This document shows, piece by piece, positions 1,591 to 39,719 of a DNA stretch of 44,244 nt. The stretch comes from a virus (taxonomy: Duplodnaviria; Caudoviricetes), in IMG/VR virus record IMGVR_UViG_3300011412_000002, positions 1-44,244 of that record, one strand, 5' to 3'. Each line of letters opens with the position of its first letter. Within the stretch, counting starts at the first letter, position 1. A program made the translations under genes and the position numbers. The notes below the pieces were generated by a model. The model saw only the letters and a list, made by a program, of their open reading frames with translations. It was not told the DNA's origin and made no database searches.

Positions 1591-4179
1591 GTGGCCTGGG
1601 CGCACGGCCGGGTGGCGGTCTTCGTCCCCAGGGGGCGGGCCACCGTCCCCCTCCCCGGGGCGACGGTGCGGGCCTACGCGCCGGGGACGGACGTGCCCTG
1701 GGGTGCGCCCCTGTACCTCGACCCCCGGGGCGATACCCCGGCGGCGTTCCCGCTGACCACCGGCGCCGGCGGGACGGTCGAGCTGTGGGCCCCGGCGCCG
1801 GCGCGCTTCGAGGCCCGCGTCGAGGCGCCGGGCTACGCCCCGCGCCGGCTGCTGGTCGAGCTGGCGTACCCGGAGGAGCCGGCTGCGCCGGCGCTGCCGG
1901 TGCCGGCCTACCAGCTCATGCCGGCGCCGCTGGCGGCGGACTACGCCCGCGCGCTGGGGCAGGTCACGGTGTTCGGCGCCGACCGGGGCGGGGCGGTGCC
2001 CCTGGCCGGGGCGGCGGTCTGGGCCTACGAGCCCGGGACGGAGACCCCCTGGGGCGCGCCCCTGTACGACGACCCCGGCTCGCCCACCCCGCTGACCTTC
2101 CCGGTGCTGACCGACGCCAGCGGGCAGCTCGCGCTGTGGGCGGACGAACCGGGCCGGGTGGAACTGCGCTACCAGGCGACCGGCTACGCCGCCGAGCGGA
2201 CGCTGCTCGACCTCGAACCACCGCCTGTCGAGGGTGGTGGGCCACCGGGGCCTGAGGGGCCACCGGGGCCTGAGGGGCCGCCGGGGCCGCAGGGTGACCC
2301 GGGGCCGACCGGCCCACCGGGTGCGGATTCGGCGGTGCCTGGCCCGCAAGGCCCGGCTGGCGCAACGGGCGCGCAAGGCCCCGCCGGCCCCGGCGTGCCA
2401 ACGGGCGGCACCGCCCTCCAGGTGCTGACCAAGACCAGCGCGACCGACTACGCCACGGCCTGGCAGGCGCCCGCGGCGCCCCCTGCGGGCACCGGCGGCC
2501 TGCTCACCACGAAGGGCGACCTCGTCGGACGGAGCGCGAGTGCCGATGTCCGCATCCCGGTCGGGGCCACCGGGTACGTCCTCAAGGCGGACGCGGCGTG
2601 GCCGAACGGCGTGGTCTGGACGTCCACCCTGGGGTCGATGAACTTCGTAGACGCCTCCACGAGCGGCATCCTGGTGGGCGTGGACGCCACGGACGCCACG
2701 GGCGACCGCATCGCCGGGCACCTGCTCAAGCGGCGCGGCTCCCCCCGCTGGCTAGTCGGGAAGACCAGCAACGCCGAGGGGGGCGCGAACGCGGGCAGCG
2801 ACTTCTACGTCTACCGCTACGACGACGCGGGCGCGGGCCTCGGGCAGGCGCTGGGGATCAACCGGGCCAGCGGGCTGGTCACCATCCCCGGGGCGCTCAC
2901 GGTCGGCGGGAAGCTGATCACCCCGGCCTCCCTGGCCGGCGCCGCCGGGCTCAACGCGCCGCACGGGGTGGCCCCGACCGCCCCGGCCAACGGCGACCTC
3001 TGGACGACGACCGCAGGGCTGTACGCCCGCATCAACGGCGCGACGGTCGGGCCGCTGGGCGCCGGGGGTGGTGGCGGCGCGCCGGGCGGCGCGACCACGC
3101 AGCTCCAGTTCAACGACGCCGGGGCGTTCGGCGGGGCGGTCAACACCGTCTACAACAAGGCCACGGGGGCACTCACCCTCAACGGGCCGGTCACGTTGGG
3201 GAGCGACCTGCACCTCGACCGGGCCGCCGGAACCGACCGGGCGCTGCGGTGGCGCAGCAGCGGGAGCGAGCGGTGGGTGCTGGACGCGACCTCGGCCGCC
3301 GAGTCGGGGGGCGGGGCCGGGAGCGACCTCGCCCTCTACCGCTACGACGACGCCGGGGGGTTCCTCGGGCCGGCGCTCTCGTTCTCCCGGGCCACGGCGG
3401 CGGCCACCTTCGCGGGGAACGTCACCGCCCCCGAACTGCTCGCGACCGGCCCGACCGCCCAGGTGGTCGTGGGCGACCGCGACGGGGGCAACGGCTACCT
3501 GTTCTACGCCCAGGGCGGGGCCTTCTCCGTCTACGACCGCAACCGCTACGCCACGGTGCTGTCGATCAACAACACGGGGGCGGCCGCCTTCGCCGGGGCG
3601 ATCACCAGCGGCGGCTCCCCCGTCATCACCCAGACCACCGGGGACGCCCGCTACGAGCCCCTGGACAGCGCCTACACCAAGGCCGAGGCGGACGCCAAGT
3701 ACGCGCTCGCCGGGGCCTACCTGACCCAAGCGACGGCCGACCCGCTGTACGTCAACGTGACCGGCGCCGAGGCGATGGCCGGGCCGCTGAGCCTCGGCAC
3801 GAACCCGGCGGCGGCCGGGATCGTCCGCCTGCCCAACAACCAGGGCCTCTCCTGGCGCAACGCGGCGAACACGGCCGACATCACCCTGACGGTCAGCGCG
3901 AGCAACCTGCTCTACACCAACACGCACCTGATCCCCGCGTCCACCAACAACCACGACCTGGGGGCGACCGCCGTCCGCTGGCGCAAGACCTGGGCGGTGG
4001 ACGGGGAGACGACCAACGTCCCCACCATCGGAGGCGTGTCGATGGACACCCGCTACGCCCTCGCCTCCGCGCTGACGGCCCTGACCACCCGGGTGGCGAC
4101 CCTGGAGGCGCAGATCCTCAGCCACACGCACCAATCCGGCACCGTGCAGAACGCCGGCGGGGCGGCGATCGTCCCCTAA
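1591..4179 (+). CDS. Tail fibre / collagen-repeat virion protein
   Basis: G-X-Y collagen run ([25 protein letters not shown]...), duplicated N-terminal domain (PLxGAxVxAYxPGTxxPWGAPLYxDP x2), repeated fibre knob motif (AGSDxxxYRYDDAG x2), and a C-terminal coiled coil. Confidence 0.8.
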
Positions 4180-9428: not shown

Positions 9429-10361
9429 ATGCCCCGGGTTGTTCACCACCACGCGCCGGTGCCCGGCGAGAGCCAGCCCTGGAGGCCCGTAGGGCGCCGC
9501 CAGGGGCCCCGTGAGCCGAAACAGGGTGGCGGGGGCTCCGGCCTCGTGAACGTCCAGAATCGGCTGTTCGCGCCCCTCCAGTCGCTCGACCCGAACAGCA
9601 TCCTGCAGGGCGGGTACGACTGGCTGAGCAAGACGGACGGGGGCATGACCTACCACCCCGGCCTGGACTTGAACACGCCGGGGGGCTGCGATTCCGACCT
9701 GGGCAAGCTGGTGGTGGCGCCCCTGGCCGGGGCGGTGCGGGCGGCGATCCCCTGGAACGGGTACACGCCGGGAGAGGGGAATCACGTCTGGCTGGAGCTG
9801 TTCGACGTCTGTTTGCCGGGCCCTACCTGGTTTCATATCGACCACCTGCAGGACGTCGACGTCGCCGTGGGCCAATCGGTCACGCCGGGGCAGCCGATCG
9901 GGACGTGCGGAAAATCCGGCGGGTGGTCGTGCGCCCACGGGCACAGCGAGTGGCTGACCGGGCCGCCCCGGGACGGCTTCTCCCAGTGGCCCTACGGGTG
10001 GAGTAAGGCGCAGGTCGAGGCGGCGTACTGGAACCCCTACACCTGGTGGAGCGCGGCGACGGCGCTGGTCTATGCGGAGCACGCCCAGCCCCCGCCGGAG
10101 GAGACGATCATGGCGATGAGCGACTTCGAGCTGACCAACTACGTGCTGGCGCAGCTCTACGAGTGGGCCCAGATCCCGTTCAACGCGGACGGGGGGATGG
10201 CCAAGACCTGGGTCGCCGCCATGCGGGCGGGCCACTACCCCGGCCGGCCCCGGACGGACGACCGGCGGTACGGGGTGGGCGAGGGCGACGGCTGGTGGGC
10301 CGAGTTCGAGAGTGGGTTACTCATTTACAAGCGCGACGGCACGATGAGCTGGACGGGTTGA
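9429..10361 (+). CDS. Endolysin, M23 family peptidase with a C-terminal putative binding domain
   Basis: HxxxD (YHPGLDLN), V.APLAG.V, GNHV, V.VGQ.V..GQPIG.CG.SG and HxH (AHGH); located upstream of small membrane-protein genes. Confidence 0.85.
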   Translation: MPRVVHHHAPVPGESQPWRPVGRRQGPREPKQGGGGSGLVNVQNRLFAPLQSLDPNSILQGGYDWLSKTDGGMTYHPGLDLNTPGGCDSDLGKLVVAPLAGAVRAAIPWNGYTPGEGNHVWLELFDVCLPGPTWFHIDHLQDVDVAVGQSVTPGQPIGTCGKSGGWSCAHGHSEWLTGPPRDGFSQWPYGWSKAQVEAAYWNPYTWWSAATALVYAEHAQPPPEETIMAMSDFELTNYVLAQLYEWAQIPFNADGGMAKTWVAAMRAGHYPGRPRTDDRRYGVGEGDGWWAEFESGLLIYKRDGTMSWTG

Positions 10362-10362
10362 C

Positions 10363-10536
10363 GTGGCCCGCACCCCGAAGACCCACTGCGGCCGCGGGCA
10401 CGAGTTCACCGAGGCCAACACCTACTGGCCCCCGGGGCGGCGGTTCCGGCAGTGCCGGGCGTGCCAGCGGGAGGACAGCCGGGGGCGGTACGAGCGGGAG
10501 CGGCGGGCGCCCGGAAAGATTACGAATCGGTCATGA
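10363..10536 (+). CDS. Stand-alone zinc-binding domain protein (KTHCxxGH...NTY...RQCRAC), not in the ORF track
   Basis: Translates MARTPKTHCGRGHEFTEANTYWPPGRRFRQCRACQRE...; the same domain ends the HNH ORFs at 24738 and 27546. Confidence 0.65.
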   Translation: MARTPKTHCGRGHEFTEANTYWPPGRRFRQCRACQREDSRGRYERERRAPGKITNRS

Positions 10537-10780: not shown

Positions 10781-10987
10781 ATGAATCCGAGGATTCGGTT
10801 GTACGGGGCCTGGGCGCTGCTGGTGGCGAGCTTGATCTTGTGGCCGGTGAGCATGGTCACGTTCGCCAGAAATGAACCCCCGGTGGTGCTGAGCCTGAGC
10901 TGGTTTGCGATCACCCTGACGGCGCTGGACATCGTGGGGACGCAGGATGTCCGCAAGCAGCAAGAGGGGGCAGAGGGGGGAGCATGA
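10781..10987 (+). CDS. Small two-TM membrane protein, holin candidate
   Basis: Two hydrophobic helices, charged C-terminus, GGGAG RBS, in the lysis cassette. Confidence 0.6.
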   Translation: MNPRIRLYGAWALLVASLILWPVSMVTFARNEPPVVLSLSWFAITLTALDIVGTQDVRKQQEGAEGGA

Positions 10988-11139
10988 GCGCCCACAATTT
11001 GTGCCTGATCCTGGCCCTGCTCAGCTTCGTGATCGCCATCGTCTCTCGGGCCGTCTACCTCCGAGAGGGTGGGCCTGCGCGGATCGAGTGGATCGCCATC
11101 GGGCTGGCGCTGCTCACGCTCGCGCAGTTGATCCCGTGA
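10984..11139 (+). CDS. Small two-TM membrane protein (MSAHNLCLILALLSFVIAIV...WIAIGLALLTLAQLIP), not in the ORF track
   Basis: GGGGAG RBS, ATGA overlap, two hydrophobic segments. Confidence 0.65.
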   Translation: MSAHNLCLILALLSFVIAIVSRAVYLREGGPARIEWIAIGLALLTLAQLIP

Positions 11140-12204
11140 GTGTGGAAGCGGGAGGTCGTCCCGACCATCCTGCTCCTGCTGTGGCTGCTGCTTGCCATCT
11201 TCCTGGCGTGGCTCGTCCTGACGGTGGTGCCGGGGACGGCTTATGGGCAGCCCGGCCAGTGCGACCGCACGCCCCCGCCCGCCGCACCGACGCCTGATCC
11301 CAGGCTGTGCGCTACGCTGACGCCCGGGAGCCCGACATGGACAGCGACGCCCAACCCGCCACCCCCGACGAGCGTATCGACGCAACCGACCCCCACCCCG
11401 CTCACCCCGTCACCAACGTCGTCGTCCACGCCGGCGACGCCGTTGTCCCCGACACCACCCCCACCAACGCCGAGTTCCGCCTCTACGACGCCGGGGGGAG
11501 GCACTACGCCACCCTCATCGCCCGCGCCATCAGCGACGGCGCCTACCGCGTCGCCACCGTCCGGTACGTCGGGCGGAAGCTGCTGCCCCTTCGTCCCCTC
11601 GACGTCTCCCACATCCTCCAGCCCGACACCCCCCCCGTCTCCGACGAGACCACCACCTACACCATCACCGTTCCCGTCGACCCCGGCCGCCCCGACCTCT
11701 ACGCCACCGCCGTCGTCCACGCCCACCTCCACTGGCACCCCGACTTCCGCCCCGGCGACCGAGGAAGCGCCCGACACAGCCACCCCCACCCCCACAGCGG
11801 CACCGACGTCCACCGCGCCTCCCTCGCCGGCCACGACGACGACCCCCACGAGCACCCCCACCCCTAACCCCTCGTTAAGCGATGCGCCCACCGCGCCTCC
11901 GGCCACCCCGGCTCCCCCGGTTGTCGTTACGGTGGTGGTCACGGTGGAGGTGGAGGTGGCGGCCACTGTCCTGGTTCCGGGCCCTGCGAGCACGGTGGTG
12001 GTGGTGGTTACGGCAACACCCGCTGCTGGAGGAGGAGGTGTCGTTCCGGGCCCTGCTGGCGGGGCTGCTGGCGATCGTGCTGTTCCAGATGCTGCTGCTG
12101 ATCCTGTCCCGCTCGTAGCTCCGCTGGTGGAGGTGGCGCTGTTGGGCGCCTCCGGCCTCGCCGGGTTGGGGCTCGGGCTGCTGCAAGTGCGGCGTGGCCG
12201 ATGA
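11140..12204 (+). CDS. Pro/Thr/Ser-rich membrane-anchored protein (N-terminal TM or signal, C-terminal TM plus RRGR)
   Basis: Hydrophobic termini with normal codon usage; long low-complexity PTS core that overlaps two nested ORFs. Confidence 0.6.
   Translation: MWKREVVPTILLLLWLLLAIFLAWLVLTVVPGTAYGQPGQCDRTPPPAAPTPDPRLCATLTPGSPTWTATPNPPPPTSVSTQPTPTPLTPSPTSSSTPATPLSPTPPPPTPSSASTTPGGGTTPPSSPAPSATAPTASPPSGTSGGSCCPFVPSTSPTSSSPTPPPSPTRPPPTPSPFPSTPAAPTSTPPPSSTPTSTGTPTSAPATEEAPDTATPTPTAAPTSTAPPSPATTTTPTSTPTPNPSLSDAPTAPPATPAPPVVVTVVVTVEVEVAATVLVPGPASTVVVVVTATPAAGGGGVVPGPAGGAAGDRAVPDAAADPVPLVAPLVEVALLGASGLAGLGLGLLQVRRGR
11337..11867 (+). CDS. Nested overlapping ORF (different frame) with His-rich C-terminus
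   Basis: GGGAG RBS 6 nt before ATG 11337; protein-like sequence (EFRLYDAGGRHYATLIARAISDGAYRVATVRYVG); the stop abuts a motif A copy. Confidence 0.45.
   Translation: MDSDAQPATPDERIDATDPHPAHPVTNVVVHAGDAVVPDTTPTNAEFRLYDAGGRHYATLIARAISDGAYRVATVRYVGRKLLPLRPLDVSHILQPDTPPVSDETTTYTITVPVDPGRPDLYATAVVHAHLHWHPDFRPGDRGSARHSHPHPHSGTDVHRASLAGHDDDPHEHPHP
11882..12118 (+). CDS. Nested overlapping ORF (third frame): Trp/Arg-rich peptide with C-terminal TM helix
   Basis: Over about 12020-12118 this frame uses G/C-ending codons almost exclusively (CTG CTG GAG GAG GAG GTG TCG TTC...), while the long frame uses GCT/GAT/GTT/CCT codons. Confidence 0.5.
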   Translation: MRPPRLRPPRLPRLSLRWWSRWRWRWRPLSWFRALRARWWWWLRQHPLLEEEVSFRALLAGLLAIVLFQMLLLILSRS

Positions 12205-12475
12205 CACCCACGAAATCAACCCGCCCCCCGACGAGCTGCGGACGCGCGCCTTCGTGGTGCGCGAGGCGGCGGCGCTGGTCTTCGTCGCCGCCTGGCTCTT
12301 GCTCTTCGCCGGCGAGCTGCTGACCGGGCGCTACACGCTCCCCTTCTGGTACGACTGCGTCGCCGTGGCCGTGCTGGGGTACGCGCTGGGAATGAATCTA
12401 GGAGAGCTGGTGGCCAAGCCCCCCAGCAAGCGGGCGGTGGCGAAGCGGGCGGTGGCTTCGCTTTACGAGGGGTAG
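12194..12475 (+). CDS. Two-TM membrane protein, holin candidate
   Basis: Two hydrophobic helices and a basic C-terminus; last gene of the lysis cassette. Confidence 0.6.
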   Translation: MADDTHEINPPPDELRTRAFVVREAAALVFVAAWLLLFAGELLTGRYTLPFWYDCVAVAVLGYALGMNLGELVAKPPSKRAVAKRAVASLYEG

Positions 12476-12581: not shown

Positions 12582-12851
12582 CTAGGGCGTAGCGGGTACG
12601 GTGGTGGCGCGTCTCCCCCGCACCGGGGGGTTGGCCTTGTTCAAGGCGTTGCGGGCCCGGATCGCCTCCTCGAAGTAGCCGTTCAGGCTGAGCCCCTCGG
12701 CGTCCGACCACTCCCGGGCGTCCGCGAAGACGTCGGGGTTGATCCGCAACGAGGTGTTCACCTTCAGGGCGTGGCGGATGCGGCCCCAGCGGTCGTCGCC
12801 GGTGGCCTCGATCTTCTCGGCGGCGTCAGCCGCTGCGGTGGTGGTTGCCAT
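12582..12851 (-). CDS. Ribbon-helix-helix (Arc/CopG-like) DNA-binding protein, repressor candidate
   Basis: VNTSLRINPDVFADAREWSDAEGLSLNGYFEEAIR matches the RHH beta-alpha-alpha pattern; GAGGAG RBS; divergent from the recombination operon. Confidence 0.7.
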   Translation of the reverse strand: MATTTAAADAAEKIEATGDDRWGRIRHALKVNTSLRINPDVFADAREWSDAEGLSLNGYFEEAIRARNALNKANPPVRGRRATTVPATP

Positions 12852-12873
12852 TTCGGTATCTCCTCACCCCAGA

Positions 12874-12902
12874 ATCTTAGCGGGTGGTAGCACTGTTGTC
12901 AA
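12874..12902 (-). promoter_or_regulatory. Sigma70-type promoter for the RHH gene
   Basis: Minus strand TTGACA-17 nt-TAAGAT; the spacer contains a GGTAGCAC box. Confidence 0.8.
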
Positions 12903-16849: not shown

Positions 16850-17746
16850 ATGCCTACCGCCCAGATGACTGACGCCGGCAACGGCTCCCTGTGGTTCTCC
16901 AGCAGCTACGACCCGGCACTGCAGGCCGACCTGAAGGCGACCGTGGCCGCCCACCACCGGGCGTGGGATCCGGCGAGCAAGCGCTGGCTGATCGACCCCA
17001 CGGCGGCGGCGCAGGTGGCGGCGCTGTGCGCCTTCCACCTGGGCGTGGACGTCGCCGTGCCCCCGCTGGGCGCGGCGGCGGCGGTGAAGCAGGTGCGCCT
17101 GGTGCGGGTGCTGTACATCGGGCAGGCCAAGTGGCGCTCGGACAACACCTACACCGCCTCGGCCTACGTCGAGGACGAGAAGGGGCAGGGGCGCTGGGGG
17201 CTGGTCATCCCGGTGGGCGTCATGCGGACGTTCTTCGAGGGCGGGCTGGCCGACCTCTTTGCCGACCTCGCCGTCGACGACGAGTGGTCGATCCTGGGCC
17301 TGGATCGGGCCCGCGCCACCAGCTACTCCGAGGCCGACGTCAAGGCGGCGGCGCGCAAGGCGAAGGCGATGGCGCACCCCGACCGCCACGGCGGGACGAA
17401 AGAGGCGCACGAGCACTTCCTGCGGGTGCAGGAGGCCGGCGAGCTGCTCCAGGATCCGTTCGCCCGCCACATCAGCCTGACGGCGGCGGACGAGGCCGAG
17501 AAAGACCGCCAGCTCAAGCTGCGCGACTACGCCGCCGCCGGGCGGATCAGCTACACCTACGCCCCGCCGGCGACGGCGCGCACCGGCTGGATGCTGGTCG
17601 AGGGAGCCCCGCTGCTGGGCGACCGGCAGTTCATGGTCTCCAGGATCGTGCAGTACGAGGCCATCGAGGACGACTACGGCCGGGTGCTGACCGCCGTCAT
17701 CAAGCGGGGCGAGCGCACCCCCACCCCCTACTGGCTGGAGCCGTGA
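16850..17746 (+). CDS. J-domain (DnaJ-like) protein with N-terminal HARP-like domain
   Basis: WSILGL...EADVKAAARK...AHPDRHGG...EHFLRVQEAGELLQDP; N-terminus YDPAL..DLK.....R.WDP.SKRW.I. Confidence 0.75.
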   Translation: MPTAQMTDAGNGSLWFSSSYDPALQADLKATVAAHHRAWDPASKRWLIDPTAAAQVAALCAFHLGVDVAVPPLGAAAAVKQVRLVRVLYIGQAKWRSDNTYTASAYVEDEKGQGRWGLVIPVGVMRTFFEGGLADLFADLAVDDEWSILGLDRARATSYSEADVKAAARKAKAMAHPDRHGGTKEAHEHFLRVQEAGELLQDPFARHISLTAADEAEKDRQLKLRDYAAAGRISYTYAPPATARTGWMLVEGAPLLGDRQFMVSRIVQYEAIEDDYGRVLTAVIKRGERTPTPYWLEP

Positions 17747-38507: not shown

Positions 38508-39719
38508 ATGGCGAACGAGCCGGACTGGGTCAAAGACCTCCTGGGGTCGAGCGCCACCACCTACCGCCCACCCGAGCAGCGCACGAGCGGGGGCGACGAT
38601 GACGTGGCGGGCTACATCCGCAGCGCCGCCGCCAAGCGGGGCATCGACCCGGAGACCGCCATCAAGGTGGCCCAGAGCGAGGGCGGGTTGGTGCCCAACC
38701 GCACCGGCTCCTTCAAGACGGGCAAATCGTTCTGGCCCTTCCAGCTCCACTACGGCGGGCCCGGCTACGAGCAGTTCGGCACCACCGCCGGGATGGGCAA
38801 CTCGTTCACCGCCCAGACCGGGCTGCAGCCCGGCGACCCCAACGCCTGGCGGCAGGCCACCGACTACGCGCTCGACGCCGCCGCGAAGAACGGCTGGGGC
38901 GCCTGGTACGGGGCCCGCAACGTGGGCGTCACCGGGCGCCAGGGCATCGGCACCGCCCCCTCCGCTCCCGCCGCCGCGGCTCCCGCTGCGACCGATGGGG
39001 CCCCGGATTGGGTGCGCGATCTGATGGGAAGTTCGGTTGCGGGGAGAAACGGTCAGCCCCTTATCTCCACCAACAACAGCAATACGGAAGCCCCCGACTG
39101 GGTGCGCGACCTCCAGGCCTCCTCCCCCTCGTTAAGCGGTGCGAGCAGGAGTACGCCGAGTTACGCCGGTGCGGCGCAGACCGACGAGATCTGGCCGGTG
39201 GCGGGGCAGCGCTGGGGGCAGGTCAACAACCCCTTCGGCGGCACCCAGGCGCGCAGCGCCGGCGCCACCGTGGCCCTACCCAGCCAGAACGTGGGCGCCG
39301 ACCTCACCGCCCGCTACGGGGCCCAGGTGGTGGCGCCGGTCTCCGGCACGGTCGTGGAGGCGTTCGACGCCCCCAACGAGACCGACCGCAACGCCAACCA
39401 CGGCTGGGGCGGGATGACCCTGCTGCGGGGCGACAACGGCTACTTCTACCGCATGAGCCACGCCAAGCCCGGCAGCGTCGCCGCGCAGCCGGGGCAGCGG
39501 GTGGCGCAGGGGCAGCCGCTGCAGCAGGTGGGGGTGAGCGGCAACACCACCGGGGCCCACCTGGACTACGAGAAGTTCGACCGCCCCGGCCACTTCGTCG
39601 ACCCCGTCCAGGGTCGGGGCGGTACAGTGGCTTCGCCTAACGAGGGGCGGGGGTCTGCGGTGACCGATCGGTCACCAACGATGCCCGACTGGGTGCGCGA
39701 TCTGATGGGAGCCAGGTAG
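38508..39719 (+). CDS. Virion-associated peptidoglycan hydrolase: lysozyme/transglycosylase-like domain plus M23 peptidase domain
   Basis: IRSAAAKRGIDP..AIKVAQSEGG...PFQL...GWGAW; then GADL.A.YGAQVVAPVSGTV...SH...GQRV..GQ....VG.SGNTTGAHLDY. Confidence 0.8.
   Translation: MANEPDWVKDLLGSSATTYRPPEQRTSGGDDDVAGYIRSAAAKRGIDPETAIKVAQSEGGLVPNRTGSFKTGKSFWPFQLHYGGPGYEQFGTTAGMGNSFTAQTGLQPGDPNAWRQATDYALDAAAKNGWGAWYGARNVGVTGRQGIGTAPSAPAAAAPAATDGAPDWVRDLMGSSVAGRNGQPLISTNNSNTEAPDWVRDLQASSPSLSGASRSTPSYAGAAQTDEIWPVAGQRWGQVNNPFGGTQARSAGATVALPSQNVGADLTARYGAQVVAPVSGTVVEAFDAPNETDRNANHGWGGMTLLRGDNGYFYRMSHAKPGSVAAQPGQRVAQGQPLQQVGVSGNTTGAHLDYEKFDRPGHFVDPVQGRGGTVASPNEGRGSAVTDRSPTMPDWVRDLMGAR

Follow-up and report, generated by a model that had tools for sequence, protein, structure and literature searches.

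In 18 phage lineages, three forward reading frames of the same kilobase have been conserved, and all three are very probably genes: a long ORF for a predicted membrane-anchored stalk protein, and two ORFs, named here N1 and N2, which are nested in it one after the other in the two other frames. We hold this with high confidence because each of the two readings in which some of the frames are mere shadows of others is left with very little probability. Together with a downstream gene for a 93-aa membrane protein they form a module of four genes in the lysis region of the phage. The DNA analysed, referred to as the window, is a single contig of 44,244 bp that carries a terminal repeat of 123 bp and has a GC content of 71.6%; its record is classed as virus, and its genes include tail, terminase, primase and RecT-like genes. 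Among public sequencing runs its best holder is a freshwater sediment metagenome, possibly the sample it came from; RNA runs were sought among the listed holders of the window, and none was found.

Layout of the module and its predicted products

On re-derivation, the coordinates and frames of the long ORF, of N1 with its GGGAG RBS and of N2 came out as claimed in the first-pass annotation (Table 1), and its description of a multiply overprinted gene is strongly supported, all three frames being kept across relatives. The nested ORFs form consecutive double overlaps, with no triple overlap of one stretch, and N1, N2 and the 93-aa gene together cover 779 of the 1,065 nt (73%) of the long ORF, whose end overlaps the 93-aa gene by 11 nt. 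The latter gene had been overlooked as a member of the module earlier. The 51-aa gene upstream is putatively called holin-like from its size, hydrophobicity and position; a family search against Pfam and PHROGs gave no match for it, and similar genes exist also in relatives without the module. Homologues of the 68-aa gene lie just before the terminase genes of unrelated phages (L005, L006, L007, L008), and this gene is therefore not specific to the lysis cassette or the module. On the other side of the module, the 89-aa gene on the reverse strand, which has a similar gene at the equivalent place in L037, may encode a small DNA-binding regulator.

Table 1. Features of the module, its surroundings and other sites mentioned in the text (window coordinates).
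Feature	Position	Strand	Description
M23 peptidase, probable endolysin	9429..10361	+	Pfam PF01551, E 1.6e-6; PHROG peptidase/endolysin matches
HNH-related zinc-finger ORF	10363..10536		Small ORF after the endolysin
68-aa gene	10781..10987	+	Small membrane gene upstream of the module
51-aa gene, holin-like	10984..11139	+	Two helices; stop abuts the GTG of the long ORF, same frame
Long ORF	11140..12204	+	GTG start; 354 aa; open in 22/22 related loci as far as contigs reach
N1	11337..11867	+	176 aa; -1 frame; ATG after GGGAG
Motif A copy	11869..11882	+	N1-N2 gap; one of 24 copies in the genome; phage-specific, outside the conserved module
N2	11882..12118	+	78 aa; +1 frame
93-aa gene	12194..12475	+	Two-helix membrane protein; fourth module member; co-occurs with the long ORF in 22/22 related loci
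89-aa gene	12582..12902	-	Region's only sigma-70-like promoter, 10/12 match
Gene with DnaJ domain	16850..17746		Phage gene
Second M23 peptidase	38508..39719		Amid large structural genes
Motif A sites, including	339, 4723, 7585, 9404, 12458, 15103, 26486, 33614, 41780

The long protein is predicted to be a type I membrane protein, with a hydrophobic N-terminal signal or anchor, two Cys, a stalk (75% Pro/Thr/Ser over residues 44-260), a C-terminal transmembrane helix and an Arg tail. N1 is predicted to be cytosolic, with a beta-meander, a Pro-rich linker and two HxHxHxH blocks; no hydrophobic segment was found in the N1 of the window (maximum KD17 0.76). Its AlphaFold2 model, built with 23 sequences, contains a 4-stranded beta-meander over about residues 25-80, with pLDDT above 90 over about residues 30-70, and is of low confidence elsewhere (mean 67, pTM 0.42), the His-rich half being poorly modelled. 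Compared with solved structures, the model gave no match in Foldseek (best E 0.29), and a VIA search reached at best Z 4.1, to generic beta-meanders, so that no fold was assigned; the ESM Atlas had no usable match for N1. N2 consists of an Arg/Trp-rich segment (net +14) followed by one predicted transmembrane helix, and a second possible start is the GTG at 12038, just behind a stretch that is purine-rich and RBS-like.

The gap between N1 and N2 is filled by a copy of motif A, an asymmetric 14-bp sequence preceded by a C-rich run, which occurs 24 times in the genome at up to 2 mismatches as opposed to 0.5 times expected by chance. The first-pass annotation read this copy as being placed as at ordinary gene junctions. 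The copy is indeed present, but it is no junction marker: the motif lies on both strands, at junctions and also inside genes (15103 and 33614), and no copy turned up when 20 related loci were scanned for the exact pattern, so it does not support an N1-N2 junction. It is possibly a phage-specific repressor site or a packaging or host-factor site.

Constraint on the three frames in related phages

Relatives were sought first through the endolysin and next through the 93-aa gene. This gave 22 related loci with the 93-aa gene, not counting L011, which is the contig of the window, or second fetches of the phages of L001 and L009; one further locus, L048, was rejected as a chance match. When these 22, a locus from the endolysin search (L039) and the window are merged at 90% identity or as the same phage, 18 lineages carry the layout. 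The loci are mutually related and counts over them are not independent, and the family of the module may be wider than the 18 lineages found. As far as the contigs reach, the long frame runs without a stop up to a hydrophobic helix followed by a basic tail in all 22 loci, except that in L026 an acidic extension follows the helix instead; N1 is present in all 16 loci that reach it, and a profile search for it returned 13 proteins, one of them that of the window. By similarity, 21 of the 22 have a clear N2 helix, the exception again being L026, which has a hydrophobic ORF in the +1 frame that the N2 profile does not match, and the 93-aa gene is always found downstream in the 18 lineages. The module is likely real because its layout recurs in so many related phages. 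Homologues that conserve one frame only, which the earlier annotation had set against its own reading, were looked for, and all three frames are kept in the relatives.

The module of L026 (2150-3770) is divergent and of lower GC; the two halves of N1 exist there as separate ORFs, one with the beta domain and one that is His-rich, and the long protein has its acidic tail. In L023 the long ORF is flanked on either side by HNH-like genes of the reverse strand (1461-1877 and 3034-3555), and here an HNH-like insertion separates the long ORF from the 93-aa gene.

Codon usage differs between the overlapping and the free parts of the long frame. The ordinary genes of the genome have a GC3 of 0.84-0.98, while A/T-ending codons make up 0.22 of the long frame under N1 and 0.65 under the N2 helix, against 0.06 expected. 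In the window the counts are 3/32 before N1, 43/176 (24%) under N1, 19/28 (68%) under the N2 helix and 3/27 after N2, and an A/T-ending fraction of at least 0.5 is reached in only 2 of 383 30-codon windows of the genome's other genes. These counts bear out the earlier observation of normal G/C-ending codons at the termini and A/T-ending codons internally, under the nested ORFs. The companion observation, that N1 has G/C-ending codons, is true as well, but this is forced by the Pro/Thr/Ser-rich (PTS) frame (C3 0.85, G3 0.09).

A PTS-rich frame was also suspected to keep a shifted frame open automatically, and it does. In an openness test, in which the long protein was fixed and the codons were redrawn in 2,000 shuffles per locus at 11 loci, the frame stayed open in 44-61% of shuffles for N1 (about 61% of the synonymous shuffles in the window) and in 7-85% for N2. 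Because about half of the shuffles keep N1 open, its openness alone is no evidence, and open-frame length was rejected as an argument for it. The same applies to its His-richness, which is near chance: the last 50 codons of N1 contain 77 C-wobbles before Thr as opposed to 71 expected, so that it is mostly a shadow of the Pro-Thr repeats. A pairwise-score shuffle test (z -2.3 to 4.6 for N1, -1.6 to 3.0 for N2) is confounded by low complexity, and DNA indel tallies in close pairs, which are noisy above 10% divergence, were excluded.

Other features of N1 are not given by the long protein. In 14 of 14 loci its ATG spans two adjoining codons of the long frame (ACA-TGG, GTA-TGY or GGA-TGT). The first codons (ACA, GTA, GGA) have a background use of 1-3%, giving a chance of 0.006-0.021 per locus, and AGGAGG stands just upstream of the ATG in L013, L021 and L039. 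The wobbles that give Tyr in N1 number 41 and those that give Asn 19, against about 7 expected for each. In leave-one-out profile tests N1 scored 61-113 bits in 11 of 11 loci, compared with a maximum of 42 in 300 synonymous shuffles, and the N1 of the window reached 74 bits against a profile of 7 loci with the other head type (see below), compared with at most 26 in 1,000 shuffles. In one related contig of depth 5.5, which is the sole basis for strain-level variation, the N1 stop is kept as a different stop codon and a 12-nt deletion just after N2 keeps both frames, the other changes being mixed (14 of 20 listed).

The N2 start is likewise recurrent: an ATG made from the long-frame codons GAT or TAT lies -1 to 71 nt past the N1 stop in 14 of 14 loci, counted by picking the first such ATG and leaving out L001, L028, L026, truncated loci and near-copies; several have purine-rich RBS-like runs, and two take the form TGATG. 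The hydropathy of the N2 helix is 2.4-3.0 in 11 of 11 loci, and no shuffle exceeds 2.1. Three Val codons of the window stand before a codon starting with A, and all of them avoid GTG, which would stop N2, whereas GTG is used in 9 of the 17 others. Against a distant profile, the N2 of the window scored 12 bits compared with 9.9 for the null, a thin margin. In L001 (7221-7223) and L028 (1433-1435) N2 is split at an equivalent place by an in-frame TGA followed by C, and both halves resemble the intact N2 of L034; readthrough, a split gene or decay are possible explanations.

Taken by these patterns of constraint, N1 and N2 are genes. That they are instead frame shadows of Pro-Thr and Val repeats, with the long ORF alone being real, agrees with the openness in shuffles, the near-chance His content and the way in which Val/Ala runs give Trp/Arg runs in the +1 frame; it is made very improbable by the conserved starts on rare codons, the excess of A/T wobbles and of those making Tyr, the profile and hydropathy tests, the modelled N1 fold and the exchange of one stop codon of N1 for another.

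The long ORF is a gene as well, itself constrained, judging from its composition and its ends. Given the N1 protein and ordinary codons, the chance of the long frame being open is 0-0.054 per locus (11 loci), and its PTS content of 67-78% goes beyond the 46-59% expected from N1 alone. Among 19 non-independent pairs, the third positions of N1 codons vary least (0.20, against 0.34 for first positions), and the pattern is reversed in the 93-aa gene and in the tail of the long ORF, with 0.35 and 0.34 for third positions and 0.22 in both for first positions. Outside the overlaps the codons of the long frame are those of ordinary genes and residues are conserved. The CCP motif of the stalk is found in 13 of 14 loci, and within the last 35 residues KD17 reaches 1.9-2.6 in 13 of 14, with L026 and its acidic tail as the exception.

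The export head of the long protein, by comparison, exists in several versions: an own signal peptide, a signal overprinted on a small membrane gene, what may be a gene of this kind captured in frame, and a candidate -1 frameshift from the holin-like gene. A first head type, a Trp/Leu-rich helix, occurs in the window, L009, L020, L023 and L031 and resembles a stand-alone 31-aa gene of L001; a second, a Cys/His domain of about 45 residues for which the ESM Atlas had no usable match, is common to nine other loci. In L001, L028 and L034 a signal-like segment precedes the Cys/His head and shares its DNA with a small membrane ORF of the +1 frame, and a small ORF of this kind stands alone in L037, which lacks the module. 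The long frame is without a start codon in L013 and L021. There, the upstream membrane gene contains T-TTT-TTC at 2521-2527 and 2414-2420, respectively, an X XXY YYZ heptamer in the right phase for a -1 shift into the start-less frame; it is the only T6 run in either locus, and the 44-kb window has none. Hairpins form 3' of the heptamer in both, but with z at only about -1 no clear stimulatory structure was found. The holin-like gene likely feeds the long frame by a -1 frameshift in these phages. The holin-like gene of L034 ends in a long Leu-Gly dipeptide repeat (about 1250-1356).

A reading in which the long ORF is a shadow of codon bias, leaving N1, N2 and the small membrane genes as the sole real ones, could appeal to the high share of A/T-ending codons under the N2 helix, where 75-93% of shuffles leave the long frame open, and to the databases, in which N1 and the 93-aa gene are called but the long ORFs looked up are absent. 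It can hardly be correct in view of the low chance of openness given N1, the PTS content beyond the need of N1, the normal codons and conserved residues outside the overlaps and the repeated gain of export heads.

Place in the lysis cassette and comparison with known systems

An M23 homologue lies upstream in all 10 related lineages whose DNA reaches that far (L001, L013, L018/19, L020, L021, L023, L026, L031, L034, L039). The module, however, is not found beside every endolysin of this kind: the endolysin search gave 12 loci, which correspond to 9 lineages after two truncated loci and one near-copy are dropped, and 4 of these 9 lack it beside the endolysin. Two of these records, which carry the same endolysin family and are rated 99% and 100% complete, have neither N1 nor the 93-aa gene anywhere, and the endolysin tree requires at least 3 gains or losses of the module. 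It therefore travels as an optional block and is not core lysis machinery, and a universal requirement for lysis is argued against by the two complete relatives. Unrelated cargo, HNH-like and HTH-like ORFs, has also been inserted in the region.

The long, N1, N2 and 93-aa proteins had no match at useful E-values in Pfam, PHROGs and NCBIfam; holins are often unmatched in family libraries. Rows for WD40 had 0 passing stretches and were rejected. A phmmer search with the long ORF returned nothing among the 8,000 candidates scored, and the exact long and N2 sequences are absent from the protein collection searched, since gene callers report one frame only. Cultured phages gave weak endolysin matches only and none for N1 or the 93-aa gene, and two scans of GTDB genomes for a host returned nothing. 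The Pro-Thr repeats and Val-rich runs presumably resemble those of Chloroflexota surface proteins. To our knowledge, nested genes of lysis cassettes are known as single pairs, such as Rz/Rz1 and E in D.

One close arrangement is that of Rz/Rz1 of lambda, also an out-of-frame nested gene at the end of the lysis cassette with a Pro-rich partner; the o-spanin is nested or overlapping, in the +1 or the -1 frame, and carries a lipobox in its signal (PMC6139136). The module shares the position in the lysis cassette and the out-of-frame nesting, but it has two nested genes in different frames, its host protein is PTS-rich rather than helical, and N1 has no export signal. As an i-spanin the long protein would have the N-terminal helix, but a PTS stalk stands in the place of the coiled-coil body and a C-terminal helix is added. 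The earlier statement that there is no convincing lipobox holds: a scan of the first 45 residues of the long, N1 and N2 proteins with the pattern [LVI][ASTVI][GAS]C, which does not cover non-canonical forms such as AWAC, found none in 14 of 14 loci, and the first Cys of the window's long protein lies beyond the predicted cleavage site. By the definition of PMC6139136, the module is therefore not a spanin. The unimolecular spanin gp11 of T1 resembles the long protein in that an N-terminal export signal and a C-terminal transmembrane helix (predicted here) flank an envelope-spanning body (PMC6139136), whereas the long protein has no lipoylated Cys or lipoprotein signal, a low-complexity stalk of about 200 residues or more, and two nested genes.

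LysZ/LysY of actinophages is similar in place and linker. LysZ, described as having an N-terminal helix anchor, a long helical body, a linker rich in Pro and, at the C-terminus, a helix, is required for host lysis (10.1101/2025.06.24.661397), whereas the module is optional, C-anchored and overprinted, and the long protein, judged by its composition against the description of LysZ, lacks the long helical body. N2 is small, cationic and, as predicted, membrane-bound like the disruptin gp28 of phiKT (10.1101/515445) and has a single helix like LysF1b (PMC13056207), but its helix is C-terminal, its gene is nested, and no sequence likeness was found in family libraries. By their predicted features, N2 and the 93-aa protein also agree with the description of a holin as a small protein with 1-4 transmembrane helices encoded beside the endolysin, and lysis cassettes with up to four holin-like genes have been described (PMC9671378). 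In phiX174, a lysis-type hydrophobic helix also arises from a shifted frame, E in D, and disorder is known to relieve the constraint of overlap, with overprinting on disordered regions being known (PMC8227390); here, however, it occurs in a dsDNA phage of 44 kb for which no limit on size is obvious, in all three frames of one kilobase and in 18 lineages. The literature searched, which leaves most subscription journals outside its coverage, contains no description of the module, the four proteins or the three-frame use. Nesting itself is thus a known device, and a module with four unmatched proteins and all three frames in use is not previously described in the literature searched.

Possible roles of the module

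An envelope-disruption function, as proposed in the first-pass annotation, is suggested by position only. What the sequence itself shows is the three frames with their conservation and start signals, their coupling to neighbouring genes and the loss of the module from some relatives. That the conserved four-gene module is an optional, accessory add-on for lysis or egress is close to an even call, if slightly short of it. All products of the module would be made late together with the endolysin. A disordered stalk would tolerate almost any third base and so have left room for the two overprinted genes. After export, the long protein would stay attached through its C-terminal helix, with its stalk of about 200 residues reaching out through the wall layers; N2, with its cationic segment and one helix, and the 93-aa protein would act as holin-type partners in the cytoplasmic membrane, and N1 would stay in the cytoplasm, where it may bind metal. 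The module would then help to breach or loosen an outer envelope layer, as LysZ does in actinophages.

Two other roles start from the same three real genes and both seem unlikely. In the first, the module sets the timing of lysis: the exported stalk senses or binds phages outside, and N2, the 93-aa protein and N1 restrain the holin. The T4 lysis-inhibition proteins hold their holin back in a similar way. The mixture of one exported, two membrane and one cytosolic part would fit such a role, as would the optional nature of the module and the translational tie to the holin-like gene (the abutting stop and start, and the candidate -1 slip in L013 and L021), but likeness to known antiholins is lacking in sequence and fold, and the strongly cationic N2 looks disruptive rather than inhibitory. 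In the second, to which we give a comparably low probability, the genes are cargo on the late transcript, and a glycosylated stalk masks the receptor on the host or its debris, blocking adsorption by competitors or by progeny. A signal, a PTS stalk and a C-terminal helix are the build of a surface brush, and patchy presence is typical of cargo; late expression, however, is poor timing for exclusion, and N2 and the tight coupling to the holin-like gene are left unexplained.

Under the lysis and egress reading, we tentatively propose, as a plausible rather than a probable view, that the module represents a spanin-independent class in which a gene for a mucin-like membrane stalk is a standing scaffold for de novo genes. 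Two proteins of unrecognised sequence would have been overprinted on it, N1 as a folded beta/His protein and N2 as a membrane peptide of cationic character; the export head would have been rebuilt several times, and the four products would act together on the outer envelope layer of an uncultured soil bacterium. The module would offer a natural case, with replicates, in which overprinting on a disordered gene gave rise to folded proteins, with an order of events that can be read from relatives. If the role in lysis is true, the module would be a new way through a non-proteobacterial envelope, and its cationic membrane peptide, N2, lends itself to direct tests in laboratory strains.
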